NCBI GenBank assembly: GCA_964362125.1
Contig: CAYICS010000002.1
Location: 9,302 to 73,301 of the forward strand
Length of the DNA stretch: 64,000 nucleotides
Reading direction: 5' to 3'
Origin: an uncultured Candidatus Saccharibacteria bacterium
Lineage (GTDB): Bacteria > Patescibacteriota > Minisyncoccia > UBA6257 > UBA11618
Both the position numbers and the translations under genes were made by a program. Below the pieces are notes generated by a model. The model did no database searches, was not told where the DNA came from, and worked only from the letters and a program-made list of their open reading frames with translations. The first letter of the stretch is position 1. Every line of letters starts with the position of its first letter. Below, piece by piece: positions 6,031-56,892 of this stretch.

Positions 6031-7360
6031 TTTTTTCTGATACTTTAATTATCTTATTATTTTGACTCAGTAACAATTCTAACCTGTGGATAACTTTTTC
6101 TTTATCTTTTGTCCGGCGGCCAAGGTAGATATAGGCCGGTATTTTAGCAGATAAACCATTTAATTCGCCGCTGGTAATGACTTTATGGCTGCTGAAACCG
6201 TAAAGAACTGAATAATAAAGGTTATCGCCGGCAACAATCATTGCCTCCGGGTCCAATTTTGCCAGAGATTTAATTTCTGTTAATTCCTGAGAATTTATTA
6301 GGGGTTCTGTTAGCCAGCTTTGGTAGAAGGCGTTGGCTGTGACAATGACTATGACAATGACAACGGCCAGTTTGCCAAGACGGCTCTGCCATAACCAAAG
6401 AACAAAATCTTTTAGTATTGGGCCAGCCAGTATTATAGCGGCCAAATCAAAGAGAATAATAAAGCGGTTGTGGAAAAGAAAATTAGTGAAGATTAGAATT
6501 AGACAAATTAAGAAATAAAGAACCAGTGGCGTGATTTTTTTACTTTGAATCATTCTAGTGACAGCAATGGCGGCAAAAGGGATGTAGAGTAAGCCCAGTA
6601 GGCCGGCGTAGAAATCAAAGTCAACGAATTGACCCGAGAAAAGAAAAGCGGTTTCTGGCGCGCCTCGCAGATATTGCTCTGAATAATAAAGAGCGCTTAA
6701 AAGTTCTTGGCCGCGGGCCAATAAAACCAAAATTAATGCCAGCAGAGCTTTTAAAGGCAGGAAGAAAACAGTGGTGATAAAAAGGGGTAGAAAAGCAGGG
6801 GGATGGACAATGCCGGTTAAAGCAATTGCCCCTGCCGCCAGCCAGGGCTTATCTTTCAAAAAGTAAAAAGCAATCAGGGTGAAGATTGCTCCTAACATCA
6901 TTTTCGGGAGAAAGGCCCAGTAGAAAAGAAATTGAGATAAAGATAGTGAGAAAATTAATAAACTAAAAAAGGCGGCTTCCCGGCCGTAATTCTTTTTCAC
7001 TAAAAAATAGACGGCTGCCGCCAGCAGGAAATTGCTGACAAGATACAGGGAGTAAATAATCAGCGGGGGCAGAAAGTAGTCCTTGAGATAAATGGCGGCG
7101 TCAGCTCCTAGAGGAAAATCTCCCCAATGAAAAAAAGGCAGAAGACGAGAAGTAATTAAGATAGCTAATGGTAAAAGCAGCCACCAACGATTAAATCTTA
7201 AATCATAAATCCTAAATCCTAAATCAGCAGTCAGTATCCAATAAAGAAATAAACTAAATCCCCAAAATACAATTTTCACCGGCCAGCTGGCAGAGAATGG
7301 GGTTGCCAGGACAATTAACAGCAGATAAGCTAAAAACACCAGTTCTTTCTTCATGAACAA
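5978..7360 (-). CDS. Polytopic membrane protein, putatively a glycan polymerase or GT-C-like protein
   Basis: 460 aa with more than 10 predicted TM helices and a C-terminal soluble tail of about 110 aa. It is divergent from a GT2 gene. Confidence 0.55.
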   Translation of the reverse strand: MFMKKELVFLAYLLLIVLATPFSASWPVKIVFWGFSLFLYWILTADLGFRIYDLRFNRWWLLLPLAILITSRLLPFFHWGDFPLGADAAIYLKDYFLPPLIIYSLYLVSNFLLAAAVYFLVKKNYGREAAFFSLLIFSLSLSQFLFYWAFLPKMMLGAIFTLIAFYFLKDKPWLAAGAIALTGIVHPPAFLPLFITTVFFLPLKALLALILVLLARGQELLSALYYSEQYLRGAPETAFLFSGQFVDFDFYAGLLGLLYIPFAAIAVTRMIQSKKITPLVLYFLICLILIFTNFLFHNRFIILFDLAAIILAGPILKDFVLWLWQSRLGKLAVVIVIVIVTANAFYQSWLTEPLINSQELTEIKSLAKLDPEAMIVAGDNLYYSVLYGFSSHKVITSGELNGLSAKIPAYIYLGRRTKDKEKVIHRLELLLSQNNKIIKVSEKNEALYRITTEPTGGTSD

Positions 7361-11147: not shown

Positions 11148-12094
11148 TTCCCCCGTCTTTTTCTTGTCCGATATGCGACGCCAGTTTAATCGATTCATCT
11201 TTAATTGCTAAAGAAAGTTCTATTGAAGGAGATTTAGGTATTCGTATTTGTTCAAATTGCGATTTTTTATTTACCTGGCCAAGAGCCATTGATCCTCAAA
11301 TAACTTATAATCAGGCGGAGAGGACGTCTTGGGAGAAAAAATATGGAGCAATCGACAGAGGCGAGGTAGAAAATGATCGCCATAAAAATTTTCTGGAAGA
11401 GGTGATTGTAGTTAATAATTATATACCGGAGGGCAAAATTATTGATATTGGTTGTAATGCTGGGTGGTTTTTAGAACAGTTACTCCGACACCCAAATTAT
11501 CAGCCAGAAGGATTGGAATCTAGTCCAGTCCTGGCAGAGATATGTCGTCGTCGGCTTAACATCCCGGTCTATCAGAATTTTAGCCAGCTATCTAATCGTA
11601 AAGATTCTTTTTCCGGCATAACAGTAATCGATGTGATCGAACATGTAAATCCCGAAGATATCAATTCTTTTATTGATAATATTTCGAAAATTATTAAACC
11701 CGGCGGTTATTTATTCATAAAAACTCCCAATGGAAAATTTACCCGTATTAAGGGCTGGCTGGCCGGCCTGTTGACGCCTAAATTAAGGCGGGCTTTATTG
11801 GGAGTTGAGGATGTCTGGGACGCTAAAGAACATGTGATTCATTGGAGCACAGACACGCTTTCCCGAATTCTTTTCAGATATAATTTTAAAACGGTTAAGA
11901 CTTTTGTTCCTTTGCCAGTACAAACAAGGGGTAGTCCGATTACGGCCATCGCCGCCCGCAAATTTATTTACTTGACAGCTTATTTATTGAACGGGCGTAG
12001 AAGAGTTCCTGCTTTTGCCCAGGATATTTTTTTAATTGCCCAGAAAAATATAAATAAAGAGGCAATCAGCATAAACGGCAAAAGAGGGATGTAA
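11129..12094 (+). CDS. Class I SAM-dependent methyltransferase with an N-terminal Zn-ribbon
   Basis: Two Cys pairs form the ribbon: CPICD and CSNCDF. Motif I reads IIDIGCNAGWF, and the acidic loop reads VIDVIEHV. Confidence 0.7.
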   Translation: MAWAKMIPPSFSCPICDASLIDSSLIAKESSIEGDLGIRICSNCDFLFTWPRAIDPQITYNQAERTSWEKKYGAIDRGEVENDRHKNFLEEVIVVNNYIPEGKIIDIGCNAGWFLEQLLRHPNYQPEGLESSPVLAEICRRRLNIPVYQNFSQLSNRKDSFSGITVIDVIEHVNPEDINSFIDNISKIIKPGGYLFIKTPNGKFTRIKGWLAGLLTPKLRRALLGVEDVWDAKEHVIHWSTDTLSRILFRYNFKTVKTFVPLPVQTRGSPITAIAARKFIYLTAYLLNGRRRVPAFAQDIFLIAQKNINKEAISINGKRGM

Positions 12095-13959
12095 TATCTT
12101 TCGCTATTATCGCTGAATATCAGCAGAGTTAAAAGCTGTGACCAGACAAAGCCGCCGATTAACCAATAATCTTTGCTGGTTATAAAAAAGACAGAGCCGA
12201 TCAGGAAGCCCAGAAACGGATAAAGCATCCATAAACCAAAAGGATTATTTTTTAAACCAAGGGCAGTAATAAATTTATTCCCCAACACTTTCAGGTAGTC
12301 AATGGGATTTTCAATAATCCAAATAATACTTGGATCAGCCCTATCATCGAATATTTTATCAGCTAAAGAGAGGATGGTTGGGTGATTATTCTTGGCAGAT
12401 AATTGATAGTCAGGAGGCGCTTGAGTGGCATGGATAAAGTTGGTAGTTGAAATTGAATTAACGAATAATCCGAAATCATCTGCTATCAGCTGGTTGCGCA
12501 GAAGAAAGGGGCTAAAGGCAATCAAGAGGCCGACAGTAAAGGACAATAGGGGTTTTAAAAGCTGTTTTCTATAAGTGAAAATCAGCCAAATAATTATAAA
12601 AGGCAGCCAGCTTAGGAAGTTGTAGCGATTAATAACAGAGAAGGCCAATGAGGCGCCGGCAAGAAAAGAAAGATGATTTTTTTTAAACAGCAAAAGAAGG
12701 ACGGCGGCGACAGCAAAAAAAGCGCCTAGGGGTTGAGGAAAGAGTTTGAAATGTTCGCCAAAAAACGGAGGATAAAAATTAACTAATGGAATAATGGCCA
12801 GTGAAAGCCAATGGTTTTTAAGAAGGCGCGAGCTGATTAAAAAAGCAATAAAAGCTGTAAAAAGGCCAATAAGTGATTGAAAGAAGACAACGCCAAATAA
12901 TCCTTCTCCGGTAATCAAGTGAATTAAGGCAAGGAAATAATAATAGGGCTGATGATAGTACGGCCCATCAATTATTTTCATTGCCCAATCACCTGTTTTA
13001 AGAATATGACGGGCGAAAGTTTCATAAGAGATTGGATCGTGGGCAACGTCCAGATAATTAAAATATTCTGACTGGGCTTTATTTAGTAATTCACTGCCAG
13101 TCAATAAAAGACAGAATAATAAAGTCGCTATCAAAAAAGGACGTTTGGGGAATATACGGGTTATTTTAAAAACAATAATAAGGTTGAGGATAGCCAACAG
13201 TTTTAATATACCGTCAGCAATTCCTAAAAGATCATCGGAAAAAATTAAAGATGGGGCATAGTATTTGGTAAAAAGAGTTTTAACTGTCTGATTACCATAA
13301 TTATCTCCCCAATTAAGATTAATAAAGCGCAGTGGTTTAGATGATGGCCGATAGCTGATTTTAATTGGATAGACGCCGCTGCCTTTAATTTTCAAATCAA
13401 GAGAGGTTTCGCCGTCGCTGGTGAGAGATACAGTTTTATATCCGGGCGGGATGTAGATATGGCCCTGCCAGTTTATTTTTATTGGCCAAAGATAACGTTC
13501 TTGCTGATCTGGGATTGTAAAAAATTTTTCGTCATTTAAATACCAAAGAGGCAATGGGTTGGCATCAGGGGAGTAGCCGACTGATTTAAAATTTATAACC
13601 GGGTCAATTCTTGTTTGGGCTAAGATAGTTTCATTGGGCGGCGGATAATAGTATTGGCCTATCAGACCGCTCTCGAGCGACGCCCCTCCCAGAATCAGCT
13701 TTAAGATAATTAAAGTGAAAGCGAAGATCCCGACAATAAGAAGATTTTTTTGCTTTTTATAATCAGCTTTCGGCGATAAAGAAAAAATTATAATAATCGC
13801 CGCTATAAAGATTATTTCGTGGAATTGGCTTAGTGGGACGCCATCGAACCAGCCGGCGCGCCCCGGAATTATGAAAAAAATAATCGCCAGAAAAATCAGA
13901 AAAAATTGACCCTGATTCACAATGTGCTTATTATAGTGACGTGCTCCAGCAACTATCAA
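11980..13959 (-). CDS. Large polytopic membrane protein with an extracytoplasmic beta-rich domain of about 180 aa. It is possibly a GT-C-type glycosyltransferase.
   Basis: 659 aa with more than 12 TM helices. Its 3' end overlaps the convergent methyltransferase gene by 115 nt. Confidence 0.55.
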   Translation of the reverse strand: MIVAGARHYNKHIVNQGQFFLIFLAIIFFIIPGRAGWFDGVPLSQFHEIIFIAAIIIIFSLSPKADYKKQKNLLIVGIFAFTLIILKLILGGASLESGLIGQYYYPPPNETILAQTRIDPVINFKSVGYSPDANPLPLWYLNDEKFFTIPDQQERYLWPIKINWQGHIYIPPGYKTVSLTSDGETSLDLKIKGSGVYPIKISYRPSSKPLRFINLNWGDNYGNQTVKTLFTKYYAPSLIFSDDLLGIADGILKLLAILNLIIVFKITRIFPKRPFLIATLLFCLLLTGSELLNKAQSEYFNYLDVAHDPISYETFARHILKTGDWAMKIIDGPYYHQPYYYFLALIHLITGEGLFGVVFFQSLIGLFTAFIAFLISSRLLKNHWLSLAIIPLVNFYPPFFGEHFKLFPQPLGAFFAVAAVLLLLFKKNHLSFLAGASLAFSVINRYNFLSWLPFIIIWLIFTYRKQLLKPLLSFTVGLLIAFSPFLLRNQLIADDFGLFVNSISTTNFIHATQAPPDYQLSAKNNHPTILSLADKIFDDRADPSIIWIIENPIDYLKVLGNKFITALGLKNNPFGLWMLYPFLGFLIGSVFFITSKDYWLIGGFVWSQLLTLLIFSDNSERYYIPLLPFMLIASLFIFFWAIKKISWAKAGTLLRPFNK

Positions 13960-14642
13960 GTGTTTCCTTTTTTTGTCCAGCTTACTGTGAGGAAGATAAT
14001 CTGCCGGAATTTATTCCCAAAGTTCATAAATTTTTGTCAGAGAACAGTCGCCAATTTGAAATTGTCATTGTTAATAACGGCAGTCATGATCGGACTGGCG
14101 TCATTGCTGAAGATTTGGCTAAACAATATAAAAATATCAGGGTGATCCATCACCCGCGAAATATGGGTTATGGAGGCGCTTTAAAAACCGGTTTTGCCAG
14201 CGCCCGCGGGGATTATGATTATGTAATGTATCTTGACAGCGACAATCAATATGACATTAACGAATTTAATCCTCATCTTCACCTGCTCGATCAGTTTGAT
14301 ATTTTAAGTCCTTACGCCGCCAAAAAGGCCGTCACTTTTCCCCGGAAAATTCAGTCGTTTGTTTATAATTTTTGTCTTAATAACCTTTTCCCTCTTAAAT
14401 TGCGGGATGTCAATTGCTCAATGAAGATTTATAAACGCGAGGTAATTAAAACGGTTTCTATTAATAGTCAAAGCGCTTTTATTGACGCGGAGGTGTTATT
14501 AAAGGCCAAGCGAGCCGGCTTTAAGATTCATCAATTCCCCATAACTCATTTCCCCCGCAAGAAAGGTGTAGCCACTGGTTCTCACCCTAGTGTTATTTGG
14601 GAGACAATTAAGGAGATGGTGAAATTTAGGCTCTGGAGTTAA
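13941..14642 (+). CDS. Family 2 glycosyltransferase with a GTG start
   Basis: Motifs FFCPAYCEEDN (PAYNEE-like), VIVNNGSHDRT and YLDSDNQYD (DxD). Confidence 0.75.
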   Translation: MLQQLSSVSFFCPAYCEEDNLPEFIPKVHKFLSENSRQFEIVIVNNGSHDRTGVIAEDLAKQYKNIRVIHHPRNMGYGGALKTGFASARGDYDYVMYLDSDNQYDINEFNPHLHLLDQFDILSPYAAKKAVTFPRKIQSFVYNFCLNNLFPLKLRDVNCSMKIYKREVIKTVSINSQSAFIDAEVLLKAKRAGFKIHQFPITHFPRKKGVATGSHPSVIWETIKEMVKFRLWS

Positions 14643-14711
14643 ATCCAAAAACTCTGCTCTTCAAAACAAAGGTAGGTGTCGGTCCGCTATTCTTCTTCTC
14701 GCAACAACCAC

Positions 14712-14946
14712 GGCTAAGCCACCCCCTCCTCCTCGAAACAACCTGTTGGAGTGGAGCTTATAAATTTGTGAGTCCCGAGGAAAGAAATCTAAGAAAAACA
14801 GTTGTTTGAGCCCCAGCTCTGCTGGGGAACCCTTATCTTCCTTAATGTTAACGGCGAGTTCTGTTTTTCCGATAATTTCTGACGAGGGACGAACTGAATT
14901 TATGCGGAACGGAAATGGTTATTGAGAGGAGGAGGGGGTGGCTATA
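14712..14946. repeat. MITE-like palindromic repeat, copy A. Its terminal inverted repeats are GCCACCCCCTCCTCC and GAGGAGGAGGGGGTGGC.
   Basis: The element is about 235 bp with an internal long imperfect palindrome and a central hairpin ccccagc-tct-gctgggg at 14811-14827. It aligns collinearly at roughly 80-85% identity to the reverse complement of 19393-19631. Confidence 0.6.
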
Positions 14947-14982
14947 TATGCCTGATGGTACTGAAAGCGATAGCTTTATTTC

Positions 14983-15012
14983 TTGACTTATAGCTTAAAA
15001 AATGCTTATATT
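14983..15012 (+). promoter_or_regulatory. Candidate sigma70-like promoter: TTGACT, 17 nt spacer, TTATAT
   Basis: TTGACT lies at 14983-14988 and TTATAT at 15006-15011. This suggests the real start of the next gene is the ATG at 15023 (MKLLMISGD). Confidence 0.3.
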
Positions 15013-16150
15013 AAGAGTGCCAATGAAGCTCTTAATGATCAGCGGCGATATTGATTTAGTCCGGGGTATTGATGGCGCTTTTTTTAACACCCTTAGTGGT
15101 TTTCATAAATATTGGGAAAGAATTGATATCATCTGTCCTTATGTTAAAGAAGCCAGACGCCTTTCTCTTTTTGGCAATGTCTTTCTTCATCCTCTGCCTT
15201 GGGGAAGAGTTATCGCCCCGTTTTTTATTTTAAAAAGAGGCATTTCCATAGTTAATCAATCTAAACCTGATTTAATTATTGCCCACGCTTACGGTTTTCA
15301 ATTGATGTCCATAGGCGCCTGGCTTCTGGCCGGCAAAACCGGACTACCTCTTGTTTTAGAGGTTATGCATATGGGCGGACATCCCCGGGCGGCCAGTTTC
15401 CGGGAATGGCTGGAGAAAATAATTTCCAAATTATTTATTAGTTTTATGGCCAGCCGGGCCGATGCTTTTCGGGTAGTTAATAAAGCCGATAGTTATCCCC
15501 TGCTTATTTCTCTGGGAGTGCCGCCGGAGAAAATTAAGCTTATTTACGCTTTTTATATTGATCAAAAGATTTTTAATAACCAAACTAATCAGGACAAAAA
15601 ATTTGATTTGATTTTTGTCGGCCGATTGGCGGCTAATAAAAATTTACCTCTGCTGCTTAATACTTTCCAAAAAGTTGCTGAAGAAATCCCTCAAGTCAGT
15701 TTGGTAATTGTCGGGAGCGGCCCTTTAGAGAATTGGTTAAAGCGGCAAATTATTTTAATAAAAAATGTTAATTATTTTCGGTTTCTCCCGGCACTGAAAG
15801 ATGTCGCCGATTTGTACCGCCAGTCCCGGATTGTGGTTTGTTGTTCAATGGCTGAAGGCGGGCCGAGATTTGTGGTGGAGGCGATGGCTTGCGGTTTGCC
15901 GGCGGTTTCCACCCCAGTGGGATTAATGAAAGAAATTATCAAAGACGGAGAAAATGGATTTCTGGCCGGGAACTGGTCTGAAGAAAATATGGCCAGATCA
16001 ATAATTAATCTTTTAAGATCACCGGAGCTTTATAAGAAATGTTCAGAGAACGCCATCGGGACTGTGGCCGGATTTGAATATCAAAAAACAATTTCTCAAT
16101 ACGCCTTGGCTTACCAGAAATTAATTGAAGAATTAAGAAATAAAAAATGA
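15002..16150 (+). CDS. Family 4 glycosyltransferase. The start is probably at 15023.
   Basis: Carries GGPRFVVEAMACGLPAVSTPVG, a GT4 EX7E-type C-terminal domain. Confidence 0.75.
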   Translation: MLILRVPMKLLMISGDIDLVRGIDGAFFNTLSGFHKYWERIDIICPYVKEARRLSLFGNVFLHPLPWGRVIAPFFILKRGISIVNQSKPDLIIAHAYGFQLMSIGAWLLAGKTGLPLVLEVMHMGGHPRAASFREWLEKIISKLFISFMASRADAFRVVNKADSYPLLISLGVPPEKIKLIYAFYIDQKIFNNQTNQDKKFDLIFVGRLAANKNLPLLLNTFQKVAEEIPQVSLVIVGSGPLENWLKRQIILIKNVNYFRFLPALKDVADLYRQSRIVVCCSMAEGGPRFVVEAMACGLPAVSTPVGLMKEIIKDGENGFLAGNWSEENMARSIINLLRSPELYKKCSENAIGTVAGFEYQKTISQYALAYQKLIEELRNKK

Positions 16151-17178
16151 AAGTTTTAGCCATCATTCAATGTTGGGATAATCAGGATCAGGTGCGGGGA
16201 TTTACGGTTGGCTGGATGGAAAAGCTGGCAGAGAAAGTTGACCAGCTGATTATTTTAACTCTGGAACAGCGCCAGCCGTCTACCAGACCCAATATAATTA
16301 TTTATTCATTGGGTAAAGAAAATTATCAGGGATTGTGGAGGCGTATTTATTATTTATACCAATGGCATCGGCAGGTGAGAAAAATAATTAAAGATTATTC
16401 ACCTCAAATTATTTTTACTCATATGACGCCTATTTATTCGGTATTGGCTTATCCTTACGCGGCTTCCAAGAGAATTCCTATTATTACCTGGTTTCTCCAC
16501 CCCAGAACCCATTTTATTGTTAAGTTAGCCCATTGGCTTTCGGCTAAAGTAGTTTCGGCAACTCCGGACAGCTATCCTTATAAGAAGGATAAGTTAGCGG
16601 CCTTGGGTCATGGGATTGATACGGATTTATTTAGGCCCGGCGGCCAATCAGACAATCCACCGATGATTTTATCAGTCGGCCGGATTTCCCGGGTGAAAAG
16701 TTATGAAACTTTATTGCGGGCGGCCCAAGGATTGCAAGTGACGATAATCGGCAATCCGATTACCGATGACGATAGAGAATATTTTTCTGAAATAAAAAAA
16801 TATCAGGCGGAATTTCTGCCGGCCCTGCCCCGTAAGGAATTAGTAGGCTGGTATCATAAATGTTTTCTCCATGTGAATCCCACCAGTCCCGGCTCTGGCG
16901 ATAAAGTTAATCTGGAAGCAATGGCCTGCGGCCGGCCGGCGCTGATGGCCACCTCCGCTTTTGCCGATACCCTATCCGGTTTTGAAGATAAGCTGATTTT
17001 CAGATATCAGGACGAGAAAGATTTAGCCGATAAAGTTTCTTATTGGCTTTCTCTTTCCGCGGCTGAAAGAGAAAAAATTGGAAATGTTTTGCGCGACCGG
17101 GTTGTTAAAAATCATAGTCTGGATAATTTAATGTCCGGATTGGTTAATCTGTTTTATGAAAATACTTTATCTGGCTAA
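16147..17178 (+). CDS. GT-B glycosyltransferase (GT4-like)
   Basis: Carries GDKVNLEAMACGRPAL. The start overlaps the stop of the upstream gene by 4 nt. Confidence 0.65.
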   Translation: MKVLAIIQCWDNQDQVRGFTVGWMEKLAEKVDQLIILTLEQRQPSTRPNIIIYSLGKENYQGLWRRIYYLYQWHRQVRKIIKDYSPQIIFTHMTPIYSVLAYPYAASKRIPIITWFLHPRTHFIVKLAHWLSAKVVSATPDSYPYKKDKLAALGHGIDTDLFRPGGQSDNPPMILSVGRISRVKSYETLLRAAQGLQVTIIGNPITDDDREYFSEIKKYQAEFLPALPRKELVGWYHKCFLHVNPTSPGSGDKVNLEAMACGRPALMATSAFADTLSGFEDKLIFRYQDEKDLADKVSYWLSLSAAEREKIGNVLRDRVVKNHSLDNLMSGLVNLFYENTLSG

Positions 17179-18319
17179 TATTCGTCTGCCAACGGAAAGG
17201 GCTCATGGCTATCAGATAATGAAAATGTGTCAGGCTCTAAGCAGTGTCGGCGCTGAAGTGTCTCTTTATCATCCTCAAAGACAGCAGTCGCCGCTGGTAA
17301 AAAAATCAGGTAAAGATCCTTTTGATTTTTATAACATCTCCCCTAATTTTAAAATTCACACCCTGCCTAATCTTGATGTAGTGTCTTGGGAAAGATATTT
17401 GCCGGTTTTTACCAGACCCCTTTTGGGCTTTCTTCAAAACTTTTTTTGGGCTTTCTATGCGGTTAATAAAACCAGAAAAATTTTTGCTGATATCTATTAT
17501 ACCCGCGATCTGACCGTCGCCTTTTGGTTAGCTTATTTTCAAAAGAGATTTATTTTTGAGATTCATACTCTTCCCCGGAAACGCTCCTGGTTGATAAGAT
17601 CAGTTCTGGGCAGTGGTGATTTATTGTTAGCGGCGGCCCTGACTAGCTTTATTAAAAATAAATTAGTTAAATGGGGCGCGCCCGAAGATAAAATTATTGT
17701 GGCGCCGGATGCGGTTGACTTATCGGCTTTTAAAAATTTGCCGTCGCCAAAAGAATGCCGGAGAAAATTTAATCTGCCGGAAGATGTCTGGCTGGTTGGT
17801 TATATCGGACGCTTTGAAAGTATAGGCAGAGAGAAGGGCGTGGGTATTTTAGCCGAGGCAGTGAGGCAAATTCCCGAAGTTGACGGCCGAAAAGTGATGC
17901 TATTGGCAGTGGGCGGGCCGTTGCCGATGGTAGAAAAGTATAAAAATCAGCAGACAATTTTTTTTGATCATCAGCCGGCAGAAGATGTGCCTTATTGGAT
18001 CAAGGCCTGCGATGTTGTCACTATTCCCTGGCAGTGGACTGAATTTTCTGCTTATTATACTTCTCCACTTAAGTTATTCGAGTATATGGCGGCTGACGTG
18101 CCGATTATTGCCAGTGACTTACCGGCGTTGCGTGAAGTATTAAATGAAAATAATGCGGTTTTAGTAAAAGCAGGCGACCGGGAGGCTTTAGTCGTTGCTA
18201 TTGAAAAACTTTTGAAAAATCCCGATCTTTCCTCTAAAATAGCCGAACAAGCTAAGGCCGATGTCCAGCAATATACTTGGGAGAAACGGGCGCAAAAAAT
18301 CTTAAAATTAATTAGATGA
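17156..18319 (+). CDS. Family 4 glycosyltransferase
   Basis: C-terminal GT-B domain reads SPLKLFEYMAADVPIIASDLPALREV. Confidence 0.7.
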   Translation: MKILYLANIRLPTERAHGYQIMKMCQALSSVGAEVSLYHPQRQQSPLVKKSGKDPFDFYNISPNFKIHTLPNLDVVSWERYLPVFTRPLLGFLQNFFWAFYAVNKTRKIFADIYYTRDLTVAFWLAYFQKRFIFEIHTLPRKRSWLIRSVLGSGDLLLAAALTSFIKNKLVKWGAPEDKIIVAPDAVDLSAFKNLPSPKECRRKFNLPEDVWLVGYIGRFESIGREKGVGILAEAVRQIPEVDGRKVMLLAVGGPLPMVEKYKNQQTIFFDHQPAEDVPYWIKACDVVTIPWQWTEFSAYYTSPLKLFEYMAADVPIIASDLPALREVLNENNAVLVKAGDREALVVAIEKLLKNPDLSSKIAEQAKADVQQYTWEKRAQKILKLIR

Positions 18320-19362
18320 ATGTTATTTTAATTAGCAACAGCAGTCAGCCGACCAGCGGTTGGGGGACGATGACTCATAATCATTGTCTGGCTTTAGCCC
18401 GGGCCGGCATCCCCTTCGTTTTATTGAAGCCGCCGTTTCTTCCTGATCTGCCTTTGGGTTTTAATTGGCGAAATTTTTGGAGAATCCCCTATCTTTTTCA
18501 AGTGCCTGATTTAAAACCCGGAAAAGACACAGTCATTCATTCGCTCCTTGATTTCCCAACAGCGGTTTTGGGCTGGCGGCTGGCTAAGAAATATAAACTG
18601 CCTTTTGTTTTCACGGCTCACGGCACTTATTCTGTTTTACCCTTCACCCGGTTTTTTGATCGCCGGCTTTTTCTTCCGGTTTATCGCGGGGCCAACCAAA
18701 TAATTGCTGTTAGTAATTTTACCGCCCGGAAGATGCGGGAATTAAGCGGCTGCCAACGCCCGATTGATGTTATCTCTAATCCAGCGGCTCTGCCGGCTGG
18801 TTTTGGTCAGGAGGATTTTTCCATTATGGATAAAATTCCCAAGGGCAAAAAAATTATTTTAGCGGTTGGGCCAAGCAAAGGCCGGAAAGGCATTGATGTT
18901 TTAATTTCCGCCCTGCCCCTGATTACTAAAGAAGTCCCCGCCGCCTATTTGGCAGTAGTCGGCGATCAGGAAAAAGAAGGAGAGAACTTCCGGATGTTTA
19001 AAAACCTGCCGGCCCGGCAATTAGCCGCTCTTTTCGCCAACTGTGCTGTCTTTGCTTTAACCCCCCGTTATCTTAATCATGAATTTGAAGGTTATGGCTT
19101 GGTTTATCTGGAAGCGGGTTTATATAAAAAGCCGGTGGTCGGTTCGCTTTCCGGCGGCGTGCCTGAGGCGGTCATTGATGGAGAAACTGGCTTGCTGGTT
19201 CCGGAAAATGATCACCGGGCCGCGGCCGTCGCCATTATCAAAATTTTAAAAAATTCAGAATTAGCTGAAAGATTAGGCGAGGGCGGTTACCGGCTGGCCA
19301 AAGAAAGGAATTGGGACAGCTATATTGACAAAGTTATAAAGATTTATCATAATCTAGTTTAG
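18316..19362 (+). CDS. Family 4 glycosyltransferase
   Basis: Carries EGYGLVYLEAGLYKKPVVGSLSGGVPEAVIDGETG. Confidence 0.75.
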   Translation: MNVILISNSSQPTSGWGTMTHNHCLALARAGIPFVLLKPPFLPDLPLGFNWRNFWRIPYLFQVPDLKPGKDTVIHSLLDFPTAVLGWRLAKKYKLPFVFTAHGTYSVLPFTRFFDRRLFLPVYRGANQIIAVSNFTARKMRELSGCQRPIDVISNPAALPAGFGQEDFSIMDKIPKGKKIILAVGPSKGRKGIDVLISALPLITKEVPAAYLAVVGDQEKEGENFRMFKNLPARQLAALFANCAVFALTPRYLNHEFEGYGLVYLEAGLYKKPVVGSLSGGVPEAVIDGETGLLVPENDHRAAAVAIIKILKNSELAERLGEGGYRLAKERNWDSYIDKVIKIYHNLV

Positions 19363-19392
19363 TCTTTTTTGTTCGAACTTTGGCAACTTGGA

Positions 19393-19631
19393 TAACCAGC
19401 CACCTCCATATTCCTCTCGCAACCATTCCGTTACAGATAAATTCCTCCTCACCCTAAGTCAGAAATTATCAGAAAAACAGAACTCGCCGTTAACATCAAG
19501 GAATATAAGGGTTCCCCAGCAGAGCTGGGGCTCAAACAGCTGTTTTTCTTAGATTTCTTTGACTTAGGGTTCGGGAATTTATCGACTTCCACTACACAGG
19601 TTGCTGTGAAGAATATGGAGGTGGCTCATTC
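19393..19631. repeat. MITE-like palindromic repeat, copy B, inverted relative to copy A
   Basis: Terminal inverted repeats are AGCCACCTCCATATTC and GAATATGGAGGTGGCT. The central hairpin ccccagc-aga-gctgggg lies at 19514-19530. Its reverse complement aligns with 14712-14946. Confidence 0.6.
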
Positions 19632-19784
19632 TCAGGGCTTGATTAAAGGCCGGCGCCGCGATCTGGTTCCGGGAGAGTTGCAGCGGAACTTTGAGTACTG
19701 CGAGAAAGGAGATTAGATTAGCGCTAAGGATGTTCTGAATTACCTCAACTGGCGGGATGAAGCCGCCAAGAAAGGAGCGGGGCC

Positions 19785-20306
19785 GTGACCGAAACATTGC
19801 CGACATTAACGGACCAAGAAAAGGAGATGCTGGCCGGATTACTGCGGCGGCTCAAGCCGCCCTATGGACCAAAGGTGTTCCCAGCGTGGGTGGAGAATTT
19901 CGTCACCACGCCAGTGGAGATGGCGGTTTTCAACAGTGATCGCCAGATACTCCTGGTTTATAGAGAAGACCCGGAGTACAAGGGCTGGCATAGTCCGGGA
20001 ACGATTCTTCGCGATGAGGAAGATGTGCCAACTGCTCTTGAGCGGCTCATCAATGGTGAGCTGGGTGGGGCAAAAGTAACCAGGCCTGTCCCCTTGGGTT
20101 GGGTGGAAGTTCACAGGGGCAATGGTCTGGGGCAAAACCCAACCCGTCACGAGATCTCTTTACTCCATGCCTGCTTCGTACAAAATCTCTCTTTATCAGG
20201 CAAAGACAGATTATTCTCTATCGATCAACTGCCTGAAAACACCCTCACTCATCACAAAGAGGTAATCATCCCGGAGATCGTGAGACGTCTCTGGGGGCCC
20301 GGATAG
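19785..20306 (+). CDS. Divergent NUDIX-like hydrolase-domain protein from a higher-GC gene
   Basis: A Nudix-box-like stretch reads GTILRDEEDVPTALERLINGELG. The gene is noticeably GC-richer than its neighbours. Confidence 0.4.
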   Translation: MTETLPTLTDQEKEMLAGLLRRLKPPYGPKVFPAWVENFVTTPVEMAVFNSDRQILLVYREDPEYKGWHSPGTILRDEEDVPTALERLINGELGGAKVTRPVPLGWVEVHRGNGLGQNPTRHEISLLHACFVQNLSLSGKDRLFSIDQLPENTLTHHKEVIIPEIVRRLWGPG

Positions 20307-20352
20307 CCGGGCCTTTTTTGTCCCCTAACTTCACGGTCGTGAAGTAGGGGAC
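20297..20352 (+). terminator. Two tandem hairpins with a T-run
   Basis: The first hairpin is gcccgg-atag-ccgggc followed by cttttttg, and the stop codon sits in its loop. The second, at 20320-20352, is gtcccctaacttcacg-gt-cgtgaagtaggggac. Confidence 0.55.
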
Positions 20353-20444
20353 ATTTGACCATTTGTCAATTATATATTATATTATGTATCTAGTCGTACC
20401 TTGGCAAATCTATGGGTCTAAAATACAATAGAAAGGATTTGAAC

Positions 20445-21128
20445 ATGACTGGTTTTAGGGAAAATCAAGAGAATCTTTTTGAGCTGATTCATCGAGTTCT
20501 CGGTGATCATTTGCCGAGCGAGCCCCTGGAAGCGGTTTATCTCTTTGATTTGAGTTCGCCCAACAAGAGTTCAATACTTGAAAGAGCTATTAAACTCTAT
20601 CAGCAGGGCCGTGTTCGAAAGCTGGTTTTGAATAACGAAGGCGATCTCGACGGCTCAATCTCCTATCAGCAGTGTGCTGAAGAGTTGATTGCTAGGGGTG
20701 TCTCAAAAAGCGATCTTCTGGCTTTCAAACCAGCTCCGGAGTTTCGCGGTCCGACAGGGCGTTACAACGCCTCATCTCAAGGCGAGGGTTTTGTTCGGTT
20801 TATCAAGGAAAGCGGTTACCGATCAGTGGGGTGCATCGCCCCGACCTTTCATCTGGTCCGTGCCTTTGTGGCAGTGGTCAGCGGCCTTGCCCATAACAAT
20901 CTCCAAAATACAGTCCGGGCTTATGCCATACCCGGAGAATCACAGTCGTGGGATGAGGAGATTGTTCATTTTCAAGGCGCCATTAAAGGGCCTCGGAAAA
21001 ATCTGCTTAAGGATGAGCTGGCGAGGCTTGCTAGTTACAGCGCCAGAGGAGATCAGGTTTCTGGGGAAGTAGTTCTCAATTATCTCAATCAACGGGAAGG
21101 AGGAAATCGTGCCGACGTTCTGCGATGA
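20445..21128 (+). CDS. DUF218/YdcF-like domain protein, paralogue 1. The ORF track starts it at 20412; the RBS favours the ATG at 20445.
   Basis: An aaagga RBS precedes the ATG at 20445. The protein has a Rossmann-like pattern: VYLFD, KLVLNNEG, and CIAPTFHLVRA, which matches the DUF218 HMxRA motif. Confidence 0.45.
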   Translation: MTGFRENQENLFELIHRVLGDHLPSEPLEAVYLFDLSSPNKSSILERAIKLYQQGRVRKLVLNNEGDLDGSISYQQCAEELIARGVSKSDLLAFKPAPEFRGPTGRYNASSQGEGFVRFIKESGYRSVGCIAPTFHLVRAFVAVVSGLAHNNLQNTVRAYAIPGESQSWDEEIVHFQGAIKGPRKNLLKDELARLASYSARGDQVSGEVVLNYLNQREGGNRADVLR

Positions 21129-21774
21129 CCAGTCAGTTCTCTTTCAGTTGACGCATCGGATTCTCTGTGATTCATTGCCGCCGAGACAGTTGGAAGTTGT
21201 CTATCTTTTCGACGAAACAGCCGAAAGCGCTTCGTCAGTGATAGATCAGGCCTTCTCGCTTTATAAACTGAACGGAGTTAGGAGAATAGCGCTGAATAAC
21301 GAAGGCCATCCTGCCGGATCAATTTCTTACGACAAACGCTGTGAGGAATTGATTACTGGGGGTGTTGTTCCTCAAGATCTGGTGGCCTTCAAGCCCGCCC
21401 CTGAATTTCGCGATCCGAAAACAGGATGTTACAGCACCAACTCTGAAGCCGATGGCTTCGTCCGTTTTATCAAGGAGCAGGGTTATACCTTGATTGGAGG
21501 GATCAGGCAGCCCCTGTTTCAGATTCGTGGCTTTGTCTCTTTAGTCAGCGCTCTCTTCCGCCATGGATTGCAAGAAATGGTTCGTGCCTACAATATTCCC
21601 GGCAGGCGGTTATCTTGGATAGGGAAGGCACTTCACTCTCAAGGTAATGTGGAGGAAGAGCGTTGGCAGCTGCTCGAACGCGAGCGGGATAACATCTTCA
21701 AGTACTGCGAATGGGGGCATCTGGTGACTGCTCCCGAAGTCCTTCAGTATTTGAAATGGCGAGACGGTTTGTAA
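21109..21774 (+). CDS. DUF218/YdcF-like domain protein, paralogue 2, a tandem duplicate
   Basis: It aligns with the upstream gene at roughly 45-50% identity, for example VYLFD, ALNNEG, AFKPAPEFR and DGFVRFIKEQGY. Confidence 0.45.
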   Translation: MPTFCDDQSVLFQLTHRILCDSLPPRQLEVVYLFDETAESASSVIDQAFSLYKLNGVRRIALNNEGHPAGSISYDKRCEELITGGVVPQDLVAFKPAPEFRDPKTGCYSTNSEADGFVRFIKEQGYTLIGGIRQPLFQIRGFVSLVSALFRHGLQEMVRAYNIPGRRLSWIGKALHSQGNVEEERWQLLERERDNIFKYCEWGHLVTAPEVLQYLKWRDGL

Positions 21775-21802
21775 GTTCTTGAGTATCTTTGGTGGTACTC
21801 TT

Positions 21803-21838
21803 GGCTGGTCTGGAGCAGCTCCAGACCAGCCTTTTTTT
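21803..21838 (+). terminator. Rho-independent terminator
   Basis: ggctggtctggag and ctccagaccagcc form a GC-rich stem, followed by ttttttt. Confidence 0.7.
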
Positions 21839-21858
21839 ATTCAAAAACTTATGCTAGA

Positions 21859-22665
21859 TTGGGTGGTGTGAAAAGTGACGTCATCAAAAAATGGGAAATT
21901 CCGGTGGTGATTTTCTGCGGCGGCAAAGGGACGCGGCTGAAAGAAGAAACTGATTTTAAACCCAAGCCGATGGTCACTATCGGCGGCTTGCCCATCCTCT
22001 GGCACATTATGAAAATTTATTCGGCGCGGGGTTTTAATAATTTTATTCTTTGTCTTGGTTATCGCGGCGACACTATCAGAGATTTTTTCTTAAATCACCA
22101 TTTTCATAATCAGGATTGTCTGCTTGATTCCCAAAATAAAAAAATTGAGCATTTAGGGTCAGGGCCAGAGAACTGGAAAATAATTTTTGCCGAGACCGGC
22201 GCCGAGGCCTTAACCGGCGAAAGATTATTCCGGATAACTAAATATCTTAGCGGCGACCGGTTTATGGTCACTTATGGCGACGGCGTCACTGATATGAATA
22301 TCAGCGATCTGCTTGATTATCATTTATCGCAAAAAACCATCGGCACCATTACCGGCGTCCACCCTTATTCCAAGTGGGGGCTGGCGGAAATCGACGGCGC
22401 TAGCCGCATCAAACGTTTCCGGCAGAAACCCTTGCTTGATGAGTATGTCAACGGCGGCTTCATGGTTTTTGAGCGGCCCTTTATTAAATATCTTGAGGAA
22501 GGCATCAGTATCGAGGAGGCCTTCAGCAAGCTGATTAGGAAGAAACAACTTTCTTTGTATAAATACAACGGCTTCTGGCATGCGATGGATACTTATCAGG
22601 ATCACGAAGAGCTTAATCGTCTTTGGCAGAAGAAAAAACCATGGCAAGTCTGGAAAGAATCTTAG
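21859..22665 (+). CDS. rfbF: Glucose-1-phosphate cytidylyltransferase
   Basis: VVIFCGGKGTRLKEETDFKPKPMVTIGGLPILWHIMKIYS aligns with the Salmonella RfbF/DdhA N-terminus. The gene uses a TTG or GTG start. Confidence 0.85.
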   Translation: MGGVKSDVIKKWEIPVVIFCGGKGTRLKEETDFKPKPMVTIGGLPILWHIMKIYSARGFNNFILCLGYRGDTIRDFFLNHHFHNQDCLLDSQNKKIEHLGSGPENWKIIFAETGAEALTGERLFRITKYLSGDRFMVTYGDGVTDMNISDLLDYHLSQKTIGTITGVHPYSKWGLAEIDGASRIKRFRQKPLLDEYVNGGFMVFERPFIKYLEEGISIEEAFSKLIRKKQLSLYKYNGFWHAMDTYQDHEELNRLWQKKKPWQVWKES

Positions 22666-23591: not shown

Positions 23592-24033
23592 CGGAGTAGA
23601 AATCAAGAAACTGAATATCATTCCTGATGAACGGGGAGCGATTTATCATATGCTCCGCCGCGATGATCCCCTTTTTGAACAATTCGGCGAAATTTATTTT
23701 TCCAAGGTTTATCCCGGAGTAATTAAGGGTTGGCATATCCATAAAGAGATGACTTTAAATTACGCCGTCATTTCAGGAATGATTAAGCTGGTTTTGTTTG
23801 ATGATCGGGAAGGCAGTGCCACCCGGGGCAATCTGATGGAGATATTTATGGGCGAAGATAATTATCTTTTGGTGAAAATCCCTAAGCTGATTTGGAACGG
23901 CTTTAAGGGTATTGGCAGTAAGCCAGCTATTGTTGCCAATTGTGCCACTCTACCGCACATTAAAGAAGAAATCGGGCGCCTTGATCCTTTTCACAATCAT
24001 ATTCCTTATAAATGGGATTTAATCAATGAATAA
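23551..24033 (+). CDS. RmlC-like cupin sugar epimerase or ketoisomerase
   Basis: 160 aa with a GWHIHK motif typical of dTDP-4-dehydrorhamnose-3,5-epimerase-like and FdtA-like cupins. Confidence 0.55.
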   Translation: MNGTVFGIKGQKIDGVEIKKLNIIPDERGAIYHMLRRDDPLFEQFGEIYFSKVYPGVIKGWHIHKEMTLNYAVISGMIKLVLFDDREGSATRGNLMEIFMGEDNYLLVKIPKLIWNGFKGIGSKPAIVANCATLPHIKEEIGRLDPFHNHIPYKWDLINE

Positions 24034-26269
24034 TCTTAAAGATTTTTATAAGGGCAAAAAAGTGCTGGTGACTGGTCAGAGCGGTTTTAACGGCGCCTGG
24101 CTGGCTTATGTTCTCTGGCGCTGGGGAGCGCAGGTGACGGCCGTTTCTTTAGCGCCCAAAACCCAACCCAATCTTTTTGATATTTTTGGTTTAAGAGAGA
24201 AAATTACCAACTACTTTATTGATCTCCGCGATTTTCAGCATTTAAAAAATATTATCGCCAATCTTCAACCAGAACTGGTTTTTCATTTAGCCGCCCAAGC
24301 CATTGTTTTAAAAAGCTATGATGAGCCGATGGAAACTTATATCAGCAATACTCTAGGCACAGTCAATATCTTGGAAGCAATCCGGACCGCCGGCTGTGTT
24401 CGCTCGGGAATCATTGTCACCACTGATAAAGTTTATGAAAATAAAGAAGATTCTCACGCTTTCCAGGAACCGGATAAGTTAGGCGGCGACGATCCTTACA
24501 GCGCCAGCAAAGCCGCCGCCGACATTATTGCTAATTCTTATATTCGTTCTTTCCATCTGCCTCTGGCTGTTTGCCGCTCCGGCAATATTTTAGGCGGCGG
24601 CGATTGGGCAGAGTATAGGTTATTGCCGGATATTTTCAGAGCTATTTACAGCGGTAGTAATCCGGTGATTATCCGTAACCCGGAGGCGGTTCGTCCCTGG
24701 CAGTATATTCTAGAGCCGGTCTCCGGATATTTATTTTTAGCTAAAAAAATTTTTGAGGGAGAAAGTAATCTGGCCGGCGCCTGGAATTTCGGGCCGGATC
24801 AGGAAAATTCTGCGGCGGTTGAGCCAGTGGTTCAAAAAACTATTAAGTTGATCGGCACCGGGCAGTATCAAGTGGTGCCAACCGATGATAAACCCGAGAA
24901 GAAATTATTAAGATTGGATAACACCAAGGCCAAAACAGTTTTGGGCTGGAAGCCCCGCTTAAATCTGGATGATACTTTAAAATGGACAGTTGATTGGTAC
25001 CGGCAATATTATACTAATCCTTCAGGTATTATCAGTTTAACTGACGAGCAGATTGATAAATTTTTCGGTGAGAGCGCCAGCCGGCGGGTAACTTACGCTC
25101 TGGCGGTTCATGGTGATGAAGAATTGGCGGCTGTGATTGACGTTCTTAGTCGCCATAAAACCATTATGGGAGAAAAAGTTAAGCTGTTGGAAAATAAAGT
25201 AGCCGGCCTTTTTGCCAAAAAACATGGGATTGCTGTTAATTCCGGTTCCTCAGCCAATTTTTTGGCCTTAGAGATTATTGATTTACCGCCGGGCAGTGAA
25301 GTTATTACCCCCATTATGACTTTTGCCACAACCGTGGCGCCCCTAGTTCAAAAAGGATTGCGGCCGGTTTTTACCGATGTTATTGAAGGTAATTATCAGA
25401 TTGATGTTAATCAGGTAGAGTCACTCATCAGCGATAAAACCCGGGCGCTGATGATCCCTTCTCTTTTAGGCAATATCCCGGATTACCGCCAACTGCGGGA
25501 AATTGCCCGACGTTATAATCTTTTTTTGATTGAAGATTCTTGTGACACTTTGGGAGCAAAATTAGACGGCGCCGCCACTGGTCTTTACTCTGATATTTCC
25601 ACTACCAGTTTCTATGGTTCTCATATTATTACTGCCGCTGGCGGGGGCGGAATGATTTGTGTCAATAATGACGACTGGGCAAGGCAGTGCCGGGTGTTGC
25701 GGGGTTGGGGCCGGTCTTCGGCGGCTGATGAGAGCGAAAGTATTGAAGCGCGCTTTCAGCAAGAACTTGATAATGAGCCCTATGATGCTAAATTTATTTT
25801 TGAACGCCTTGGCTATAATTTCTTGCCCAGTGAAATAGGCGCGGCTTTTGGTTTAGCCCAGTTGGAGAAGTTAGATAGTTTTATCGCCATCCGGCGCCGC
25901 AATTTCCAAGAGCTAAAATTATTTTTCTTAAATTATCAGGATTTATTTATTCTGCCGGAACAAAATTCCCGGGCCGAAACCGCCTGGCTGGCTTTTCCTT
26001 TAACTATTAAAGAAGGGGCGCCTTTCCGACGCAAAGATTTACAGATTTATCTCGAGAGGCGGGGCATCCAGACCAGAACTAATTTTGCCGGCAATCTCTT
26101 GCGTCACCCCGGCTTTAAAGGCATACCCTGCCGCACCCGGGCCGAAGGTTATCCAGCGGCAGATAATATTTTCCGCAATTCTTTTCTGATTGGCTGTCAC
26201 CACGGTCTGACCAGTGAGGACTTGGCTTATCTTAAGCAAAGTTTTACTGATTTCTTTAAATCCATATGA
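24026..26269 (+). CDS. Single-ORF fusion of CDP-glucose 4,6-dehydratase (RfbG/DdhB-like, N-terminal) and PMP-dependent CDP-4-keto-6-deoxyglucose 3-dehydrase (RfbH/DdhC/E1-like, C-terminal)
   Basis: Residues 1 to about 350 read KKVLVTGQSGFNGAWL, YSASK and RPWQYILEP, which are collinear with RfbG. Residues from about 355 to 747 are DegT/DnrJ/EryC1-family (GSSANFLAL, DSCDTLG, TTSFYGSHIITAAGGGGM). The frame is continuous throughout. Confidence 0.8.
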   Translation: MNNLKDFYKGKKVLVTGQSGFNGAWLAYVLWRWGAQVTAVSLAPKTQPNLFDIFGLREKITNYFIDLRDFQHLKNIIANLQPELVFHLAAQAIVLKSYDEPMETYISNTLGTVNILEAIRTAGCVRSGIIVTTDKVYENKEDSHAFQEPDKLGGDDPYSASKAAADIIANSYIRSFHLPLAVCRSGNILGGGDWAEYRLLPDIFRAIYSGSNPVIIRNPEAVRPWQYILEPVSGYLFLAKKIFEGESNLAGAWNFGPDQENSAAVEPVVQKTIKLIGTGQYQVVPTDDKPEKKLLRLDNTKAKTVLGWKPRLNLDDTLKWTVDWYRQYYTNPSGIISLTDEQIDKFFGESASRRVTYALAVHGDEELAAVIDVLSRHKTIMGEKVKLLENKVAGLFAKKHGIAVNSGSSANFLALEIIDLPPGSEVITPIMTFATTVAPLVQKGLRPVFTDVIEGNYQIDVNQVESLISDKTRALMIPSLLGNIPDYRQLREIARRYNLFLIEDSCDTLGAKLDGAATGLYSDISTTSFYGSHIITAAGGGGMICVNNDDWARQCRVLRGWGRSSAADESESIEARFQQELDNEPYDAKFIFERLGYNFLPSEIGAAFGLAQLEKLDSFIAIRRRNFQELKLFFLNYQDLFILPEQNSRAETAWLAFPLTIKEGAPFRRKDLQIYLERRGIQTRTNFAGNLLRHPGFKGIPCRTRAEGYPAADNIFRNSFLIGCHHGLTSEDLAYLKQSFTDFFKSI

Positions 26270-56837: not shown

Positions 56838-56877
56838 TTATACTCAAAAGTTGCACGTGCAACTTTTGAGTATAATC
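56836..56877. terminator. Perfect 42-bp palindrome between convergent genes, a bidirectional terminator
   Basis: gattatactcaaaagttgcac | gtgcaacttttgagtataatc. The arms are 21 nt and match perfectly. Confidence 0.6.
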
Positions 56878-56892
56878 GAAAAATACTAAATT

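Follow-up and report, generated by a model that had tools for sequence, protein, structure and literature searches.

Correia elements, as described in PMC2649163, join an inverted repeat to a conserved core; they are substrates of RNase III and can give rise to promoters. Miniature inverted-repeat transposable elements, known as MITEs, are shorter than 500 bp, have terminal inverted repeats (TIRs) of 4-30 bp, insert in AT-rich intergenic DNA, and are flanked by direct repeats when young, since target-site duplications (TSDs) may decay with age; their transcripts form stable stem-loops (PMC10969869). In the 64-kb stretch of DNA analyzed here (the window), two inverted, hairpin-forming repeats, copy A and copy B, bracket four consecutive genes for glycosyltransferases of family GT4 (Table 1). 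We consider it probable, at roughly 0.6, that A and B each represent an independent copy of one foldback repeat, non-coding and about 235-310 bp long, which has spread between the genes of one uncultivated Patescibacteria-like groundwater bacterium. The repeat is best read as MITE-like in the sense of Correia and ERIC elements, i.e. as a previously undescribed family of a known general kind.

Copies of the repeat in the window and elsewhere

By employing a repeat search together with alignments, A and B were confirmed as true reverse-complement homologues that are inverted relative to each other, with 84% complementarity over 140 nucleotides (nt; arms 14781-14920 versus 19421-19560). The initial annotation had put their identity at 80-85%, which agrees with blastn (79.9% over 234 nt) and with the MAFFT pairwise mean (84%). 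This identity is unevenly distributed, as the alignment has a near-identical center, including a 34-nt exact match (the longest), and far more diverged arms beside it. Terminal inverted repeats were found in each copy, namely 27 nt with 89% complementarity in A (AGCCACCCCCTCCTCCTC.../...GAGGAGGAGGGGGTGGCT) and 26 nt with 85% in B, and so was the predicted CCCCAGC-TCT-GCTGGGG hairpin. Folding likewise agreed with expectation, in that A and B each form an imperfect hairpin of about 100 bp that is far better than those of shuffled sequence (z scores of -6.5 to -10.4 for both copies on either strand, with 0 of 200 shuffles as good). The bracketed genes number exactly four, as annotated; all four open reading frames (ORFs) in 15002-19362 have Glycos_transf_1/GT4 Pfam matches. 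While the two copies could be upheld, their limits could not: the extents of 14712-14946 and 19393-19631 were replaced by those in Table 1 on the basis of a comparison with two relatives, L139 and L140 (see below), and each element has an extra tail of about 35 nt, situated 3' in its own orientation. Core patterns of 24 and 29 nt had only two sites in the window, i.e. those in A and B, at a chance expectation of 0.

One reading already proposed for the pair was that of a dispersed miniature mobile element family, and it is supported by at least nine further copies, which lie between genes at unrelated loci of the same Hainich groundwater metagenome. Seven of these, on the contigs L129-L135, were found with an exact 22-nt core pattern in a scan of a metagenome collection, which returned no copy outside the one sample. 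All seven contigs belong to assembly ERZ1292623, have a coverage of 6-8, and do not match the window outside the element. A profile search yielded a tenth, diverged copy (L130b), which lies head-to-head with the copy in L130 and directly abuts it (L130:1858-2067 on the minus strand and L130:2104-2362 on the plus strand). The eleventh copy (X) is partial: L129 and L131 both open with its right arm, and the next element comes directly after it in a tail-to-head arrangement. In the family as found, the two copies in the window are thus joined by seven with an exact core, one that has diverged and one that is partial. The abutting copies suggest either a preference for insertion beside existing copies or a collapse of the assembly at repeats. 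L129 and L131 contain virtually one and the same element, with the same first 55 nt in both contigs, but L129 has an extra outer palindromic layer of about 40 bp (56-96 and 406-445) and the right flanks differ; the two could be strain variants, different loci, or a product of chimeric assembly at repeats.

The neighbors of the copies are unrelated housekeeping genes, e.g. a sigma factor, a class II tRNA synthetase, GreA, PilB/PilC, NDK and a pilin. Relative to the flanking genes, about four to five copies are in sense and four in antisense orientation. A cis-regulatory leader or riboswitch specific to the GT4 operon is thereby ruled out, since copies occur beside unrelated genes and are split evenly between the two orientations.

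Within the family, A and B are not each other's closest kin. Their arms are only 55% identical, whereas those of A and the L133 copy are 73% identical and those of B and the L135 copy 80%. In line with this, megablast aligned L133 to A with 97% identity over 151 nt, and L135 to B with 97.6% over 170 nt. Given the low identity of the arms and the closer relatives elsewhere, A and B stem from separate insertions, as opposed to being sister copies or a duplicated pair.

Other searches added no members. With a 192-position covariance model (R1), neither the window nor L121-L136 yielded any more copies. Rfam 15 gave 0 matches at gathering score in the whole window, and those at E<10 around copy A were at chance level (E 4.9-7.3, 10-13 bits). 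The element had no match in plasmid and phage collections (blastn, distant mode), and core 16- and 17-mers gave chance matches only in viral contigs. Six-frame core peptides, with which spurious ORF calls on other copies were sought, had no match among 5.8 billion proteins. In genome contigs, the pattern CCCCAGC-N3-6-GCTGGGGAACC, which is ill-suited to the purpose, hit 115 loci, with no copy among them according to nhmmer. The sole plausible relative among the matches listed for this GC-rich hairpin pattern, the Patescibacteria locus L042, proved to be a tRNA and a terminator, and not a copy.

The source of the window can be placed through the first GT4 protein, which is 100% identical to a database protein encoded on contigs of three replicate assemblies from well H51 of the Hainich aquifer (0.1-um fraction). 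Among named homologues, those closest to it come from Yanofskybacteria and Paceibacterota, so that the host is an organism resembling Patescibacteria, i.e. the candidate phyla radiation (CPR). A related lineage from the same well is represented by L139 and L140, both of which are without the element at the corresponding places. L139, whose first GT4 protein is 80% identical at the amino acid level, is homologous to the window from exactly position 14983 on; the 214 nt of contig upstream of this point are unrelated sequence without an element, and the tail of A, which ends here, has no homology to L139. The 68 nt around the promoter-like site of the GT4 operon are 92.6% identical in L139. L140, with a NUDIX protein of 74% amino acid identity, has an intact gene (L140:3-608) that ends 4 nt before NUDIX, again with no element. 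This gene is a paralogue of the window genes 20412-21128 and 21109-21774, neither of which has a Pfam match. Of such a gene, the window keeps the last approximately 56 codons, starting from the end of B (~19629). The remnant has 78.6% identity in tblastn to residues 146-201 of the upstream protein in L140, with blastn homology from ~19627, and reads GAT TAG, with an in-frame stop, where L140 reads GAT CAG. The DNA from copy B to the NUDIX gene represents the remnant of a pseudogene. In neither comparison are the far sides collinear, so that neither amounts to a clean empty site. A and B being located at synteny breaks, with B abutting a truncated gene, fits insertion together with adjacent rearrangement.

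Structure of the element and explanations for the pair

Conservation and pairing were analyzed in an alignment of nine copies, in which a four-part architecture may be distinguished: a GC-rich outer helix (P1), helices with conserved internal loops, a near-invariant asymmetric core, and a short 3' tail. Core identity between copies is 87-100% over about 100 nt, while that of the arms is 44-86%. RNAalifold predicted 82 pairs, of which 23 had changes on both sides; 95% of the cells were paired and the observed covariation was matched by 0 of 500 shuffles. Slid controls were 38-53% paired, with two to nine double-change pairs. In helix 9, all eight pairs covary, including a full flip from GUCCC/GGGAC to GGGAU/GUCCC. 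P1 also varies in sequence from copy to copy with its pairing kept. Other parts are conserved in sequence across the subfamilies, including L130b, namely the helix UAAAUUC/GAAUUUA, which does not vary, the unpaired loop motifs AGUGGA (5' arm) and AACGGA (3' arm), and the closing segment CAG-YUGUUUGAGC...GGCGAGUUCUG. The apical hairpin is unchanged in seven out of the nine copies, with another hairpin instead in L130b, and some copies have optional inserted hairpins. Weak promoter-like hexamers in the core are kept in the eight copies with a main-type 3' core, and are not conserved in the L134 copy and L130b. A tail motif, ACC.AAAGC....CCTT(T)TAT, follows the right arm of the copies in L129, L133, L134 and L135, of L130b and of the partial copy X. 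The copy at L134:8449-8684 is a mosaic with an inner 5' arm of the main type and an inner 3' arm like that of L130b, in which P5/P6 no longer pair; it is evidence of gene conversion or recombination, i.e. sequence exchange, between copies.

Several asymmetries distinguish the two strands. All nine copies fold better, by 2-21 kcal/mol, in the A+ orientation than in reverse, G.U outnumbers A.C in the arms (80 vs 54), U.G in P1 recurs across subfamilies, and a small hairpin with a U-rich tail occurs only on the 3' side of copies. They hint at selection acting on a single folded strand, RNA or single-stranded DNA (ssDNA), among copies that are not independent of each other. The covariation of the arms itself fits folded DNA as well as RNA.

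Another family of palindromic repeats, smaller in size, CCCCCACACCTA...TAGGTGTGGGGG, was identified in a short form of about 28 nt and a long form of about 65-72 nt, both nested in the large element and free-standing (Table 1), with none in the window. Nested copies, in four copies of the large element, are situated at a TAAA that is found on both of their sides in a TSD-like manner, where A and B have a single TAAA. The free-standing ones have short T-rich repeats at their flanks and look terminator-like.

As regards the preferred reading, a foldback interspersed repeat of MITE-like kind, the copies are 235-310 bp long and without a conserved ORF. An ATG-initiated frame has 26 amino acids in A, while a stop follows after 15 in B; a small protein or type I toxin was rejected, the frame not being conserved between the two. 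The ends are paired in every copy and their sequence differs between subfamilies, with an outer GCYTTYGGT...ACCRAAAGC layer only in L133, L135, X and L130b, and in part in A and L129. Some of the data weigh against this reading. Termini that vary (GCCACC..., GCCAGCC..., CCGACCCC..., or the outer GCYTTYGGT layer) are unlike transposase-bound TIRs, and MITEs typically show the opposite of an invariant center with variable ends. No TSD was found with either set of boundaries (P1 ends, or outer/tail ends), the best direct repeats flanking the element being 2-4 nt long and off the boundary, and no parent insertion sequence (IS) or transposase was found among the approximately 30 larger window ORFs scanned or beside any copy. 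Furthermore, all copies come from one sample, and mobility is deduced from the distribution of copies and two non-collinear comparisons; that all contigs belong to one genome is suggested by their similar coverage, a GC content of 0.44-0.49 and the shared second repeat. The label MITE of the initial annotation is accordingly only partly earned: the element resembles that class, in which strict membership is not established.

The outer helices are not halves of pre-existing host terminators, a possibility rejected because the same helix occurs despite different flanks (L129/L131/L133 and L130/L132). Integron attC sites, retron non-coding RNA, 6S/SRP-like RNA and IS200/IS605 ends were set aside in view of the central conservation, the high copy number, a left flank without conserved nucleotides, and the finding of no associated protein.

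If the repeat is such a MITE-like element, it would be mobilized in trans, at present or in the past, by an enzyme that reads the folded core or the conserved loops and not the termini. The hairpin may be kept by selection or by hairpin-templated correction, in either case acting on a single strand. Copies co-transcribed in operons would give a long RNA hairpin in either orientation, which by analogy with Correia elements could serve as a site of RNase III cleavage, processing or attenuation. The bracketing of the GT4 genes would then most likely result from separate insertion events, one per copy, in gaps between genes, of which the surface-glycan island has few of a sizeable length. Local rearrangement would have accompanied the insertions, with the truncated gene beside B as its trace.

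A bolder alternative, which we hold to be possible if unlikely, is that the repeat belongs to a new class of elements functional as a folded single strand, as opposed to a decayed MITE of the DDE type. Two variants of this are conceivable. One possibility is an element that moves via an ssDNA or RNA hairpin intermediate, recognized by the invariant asymmetric core of about 100 nt. Another is a rod-like, viroid-like structured RNA present in many copies in Patescibacteria, whose arms would covary and whose internal loops and central domain would be conserved, with apical modules that can be swapped.

Rather unlikely, in our judgment, is the related idea that the copies are genes or cis-elements of a novel structured RNA on the A+ strand, i.e. 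a multi-copy family of small RNAs, in which the core and internal loops would be binding sites for a protein or ligand and the 3' tail a weak terminator. The strong covariation, the conservation of unpaired motifs and one helix even in L130b, the strand asymmetries in folding energy, G.U pairs, recurrent U.G and the one-sided tail, and the contrast in A versus B between a core of 96% and arms of 55% identity all speak for it. Against it, no consistent promoter was found upstream of the copies, their orientation is unbiased relative to the neighboring genes, some of them abut or nest with each other, and P5/P6 of the L134 mosaic is mismatched. The confinement of the family to one sample in the metagenome scan and the negative Rfam and six-frame peptide searches point the same way, and the excess of G.U is modest among copies that are not independent.

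Quasi-palindrome correction is an established mutational process, and the hairpin could in principle be kept by mechanism alone, with intrastrand template switching copying changes from arm to arm in a decaying piece of selfish DNA. The seemingly compensatory changes would then be without functional meaning, and the arms, which are mosaic between copies, agree with this. It leaves unexplained, though, why internal loops of about 8 nt and the 40-nt asymmetric core loop are unpaired yet conserved in sequence across subfamilies, and why the core stays conserved at the level given above while the arms diverge. We therefore regard this explanation as improbable.

The initial annotation had also suggested inversion or cassette exchange of the glycosyltransferase block, leading to glycan phase variation. 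In such a switch, A and B would undergo a crossover, mediated by RecA or an invertase, and the four GT4 genes would be flipped. The inverted orientation, the 34-nt perfect match within a core of 96% identity, the position in a surface-glycan island and the mosaic arms of L134, which demonstrate exchange between copies, speak for this. Nevertheless, the reference orientation was found in all four assembled contigs of the replicate assemblies that span a junction: L121 (R2, both A and B), L122 and L137 (R3, A) and L136 (R3, B). A crossover in the core would moreover create aL/bR hybrid copies with unpaired arms, and the arms of A and of B are fully matched. The promoter-like site of the operon lies inside the bracketed block, so that it would stay coupled to the genes upon inversion. 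No invertase, recombinase, integrase or transposase was found with Pfam and NCBIfam among the larger window ORFs mentioned above, which include all ORFs in 11980-22665, and single copies of the element are present at many loci. The proposal is thereby left unsupported, and we hold it to be very improbable.

Equally improbable is a composite, MITE-flanked mobile unit by which the cassette of four genes would have moved in one piece, a notion to which the two inverted copies around a discrete gene set, the synteny breaks at both outer edges and the MITE-flanked integrons of Acinetobacter mentioned in PMC10969869 lend some appeal, but which is contradicted by flanking copies that are not near-identical and belong to different subfamilies, by a relative that has the first GT4 gene and its promoter region without A, by a synteny break on the A side that lies between A and the cassette instead of outside A, and by the finding of no direct repeat around the A-to-B segment.

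Genomic setting of the two copies

Upstream of A, the window has a GT2 gene and a gene for a PMT_2-like membrane protein, while a NUDIX gene lies downstream of B (all by Pfam). The remaining window is a surface-glycan biosynthesis island of about 55 kb beside dnaE, thrS and gatB. Short contigs of the replicate assemblies stop inside copy A, either at the center of the hairpin or at the edge of the shared core, which is expected assembler behavior at repeats.

Table 1. Positions of the repeat copies, their parts and adjacent features. Positions are those of the window, unless a contig is named.
Feature	Position	Strand	Evidence and remarks
Copy A	14716..14982	+	nhmmer match 14716-14945; covariance model match 14736-14926; fold -96 kcal/mol, z -6.5
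Right limit of copy A	14982	+	Homology to relative L139 restarts at 14983
Outer helix P1, 5' arm, copy A	14717..14743	+	Pairs with 14917-14943; 27 nt, 89% complementary
Outer helix P1, 3' arm, copy A	14917..14943	+	Repeat search and fold
Conserved asymmetric core, copy A	14782..14883	+	Helices P5/P6, apical hairpin, loop of about 40 nt
Apical hairpin CCCCAGC-TCT-GCTGGGG, copy A	14811..14827	+	Pattern match and fold
Putative weak promoter-like site TTAACG-17-GATAAT in core of A, toward 3' arm	14848..14876	+	Consensus scan only, 9/12
Mirror promoter-like site in core of B	19465-19493	-	Counterpart of 14848..14876
3' tail of copy A	14945..14982	+	Small hairpin AAAGC/GCTTT, then TTTAT
Promoter-like site TTGACT-18-TATATT of GT4 operon, outside element	14983..15012	+	10/12 consensus matches
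GT4 glycosyltransferase 1	15002..16150	+	Pfam Glycos_transf_1, 5e-39; database start 15023, 375 amino acids
GT4 glycosyltransferase 2	16147..17178	+	Pfam
GT4 glycosyltransferase 3	17156..18319	+	Pfam
GT4 glycosyltransferase 4	18316..19362	+	Pfam
Copy B	19363..19628	-	nhmmer match 19395-19628; covariance model match 19415-19607; fold -106 kcal/mol, z -9.6
End of copy B	~19628	-	Homology to relative L140 starts there
Tail of copy B	19363-19394	-	Contains CCAAAG motif
Conserved core, copy B	19458..19559	-	96% identical to core of A
Apical hairpin, copy B	19514..19530	-	Pattern match
3' gene remnant, about 51-56 codons, in-frame TAG	19629..19782	+	tblastn/blastn versus L140; truncated exactly where B ends
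Second repeat, nested in large element	L129:153-217, L131:111-175, L133:4694-4723, L135:5681-5710		
Second repeat, free-standing	L131:1592-1619, L134:726-790, L135:2418-2484		

A number of other features of the window deserve mention. CDP-glucose 4,6-dehydratase and the RfbH-like step, both belonging to dideoxyhexose synthesis, are usually encoded by separate genes. Here, one ORF of 747 amino acids (24026-26269, plus strand) is a fusion in which residues 7-346 form a CDP-glucose 4,6-dehydratase domain and residues 349-745 an RfbH-like pyridoxal phosphate enzyme. The threonyl-tRNA synthetase gene (2433-3629, plus strand) encodes only 398 amino acids, covering positions 170-563 of the thrS model and being without the N-terminal domains. 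Three large ORFs of the glycan island, all on the minus strand, have no Pfam match (58130-59917, 60495-62132 and 5978-7360, with 595, 545 and 460 amino acids, respectively), the first two having no NCBIfam match either.

A near-perfect palindrome, GATTATACTCAAAAGTTGCAC|GTGCAACTTTTGAGTATAATC, is located at 56829-56884 and carries TATAAT on both strands. It recurs in intergenic positions at L132:3958, L133:2197 and L133:2981, and may be a bidirectional promoter or operator motif, or else a third repeat family. Its recurrence in L132 and L133 suggests that the contigs share one genome.

Comparison with known systems

Patescibacteria have tiny genomes in which little repetitive DNA has been described, and no comparable repeat family from this group turned up in the full-text literature searches made. 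In the genome considered here, palindromic repeats form two or more nested families, one of them a foldback of about 270 bp with unusually clear structure-preserving evolution. As the copies in the window mark breakpoints in the surface-glycan island, they may help to rearrange the set of glycosyltransferases by which the cell surface of these episymbionts is shaped. For annotation purposes, A and B should not be described as an inversion switch, contigs of the source organism break at the repeats, and the DNA between B and NUDIX should be treated as the remnant of a gene.

Invertons resemble the A/B pair in having inverted repeats that flank a DNA segment, in this case in a surface-glycan locus. 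Their repeats are short and usually situated around a promoter, with an invertase nearby and both orientations present in sequence data, and none of these traits was seen for A and B. Composite units flanked by MITEs or ISs likewise consist of two small repeat copies around a functional gene set, as far as they are treated in PMC10969869; the flanking copies of such units are, however, identical or nearly so, and the unit as a whole carries a TSD of its own, as opposed to the different subfamilies found here and the relative with the genes but without A.

Closer in kind are the prokaryotic MITEs, e.g. QMITE2 of Coxiella, Chunjie, Nezha and ERIC, which are also non-coding, below 500 bp in length, dispersed between genes and transcribed into stem-loops (PMC10969869), for which the predicted folds would be the counterpart here. 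They differ from the present family in that neither a TSD nor an associated IS or transposase was found for the latter, in that its center is conserved and its termini variable, and in the unusually extensive covariation along about 80 base pairs.

The Correia repeat enclosed elements (CREE, or nemis) of Neisseria are about 100-155 bp long, have TIRs of conserved sequence and duplicate a TA target. Unlike these, the present copies are 235-310 bp in length, have ends that vary and covary, yielded no TSD, come from a Patescibacteria-like host and have no similarity to CREE in sequence. What the two have in common is a small non-coding repeat, dispersed between genes, with inverted-repeat ends and a conserved core, inserted in either orientation and often co-transcribed. 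Correia RNA forms hairpins that are bound or cut by RNase III, and promoters are created by the element, as far as PMC2649163 describes; the weak outward promoter-like site predicted in the core would be the corresponding feature here. By analogy, the Correia element may be regarded as the closest functional counterpart of the foldback repeat.

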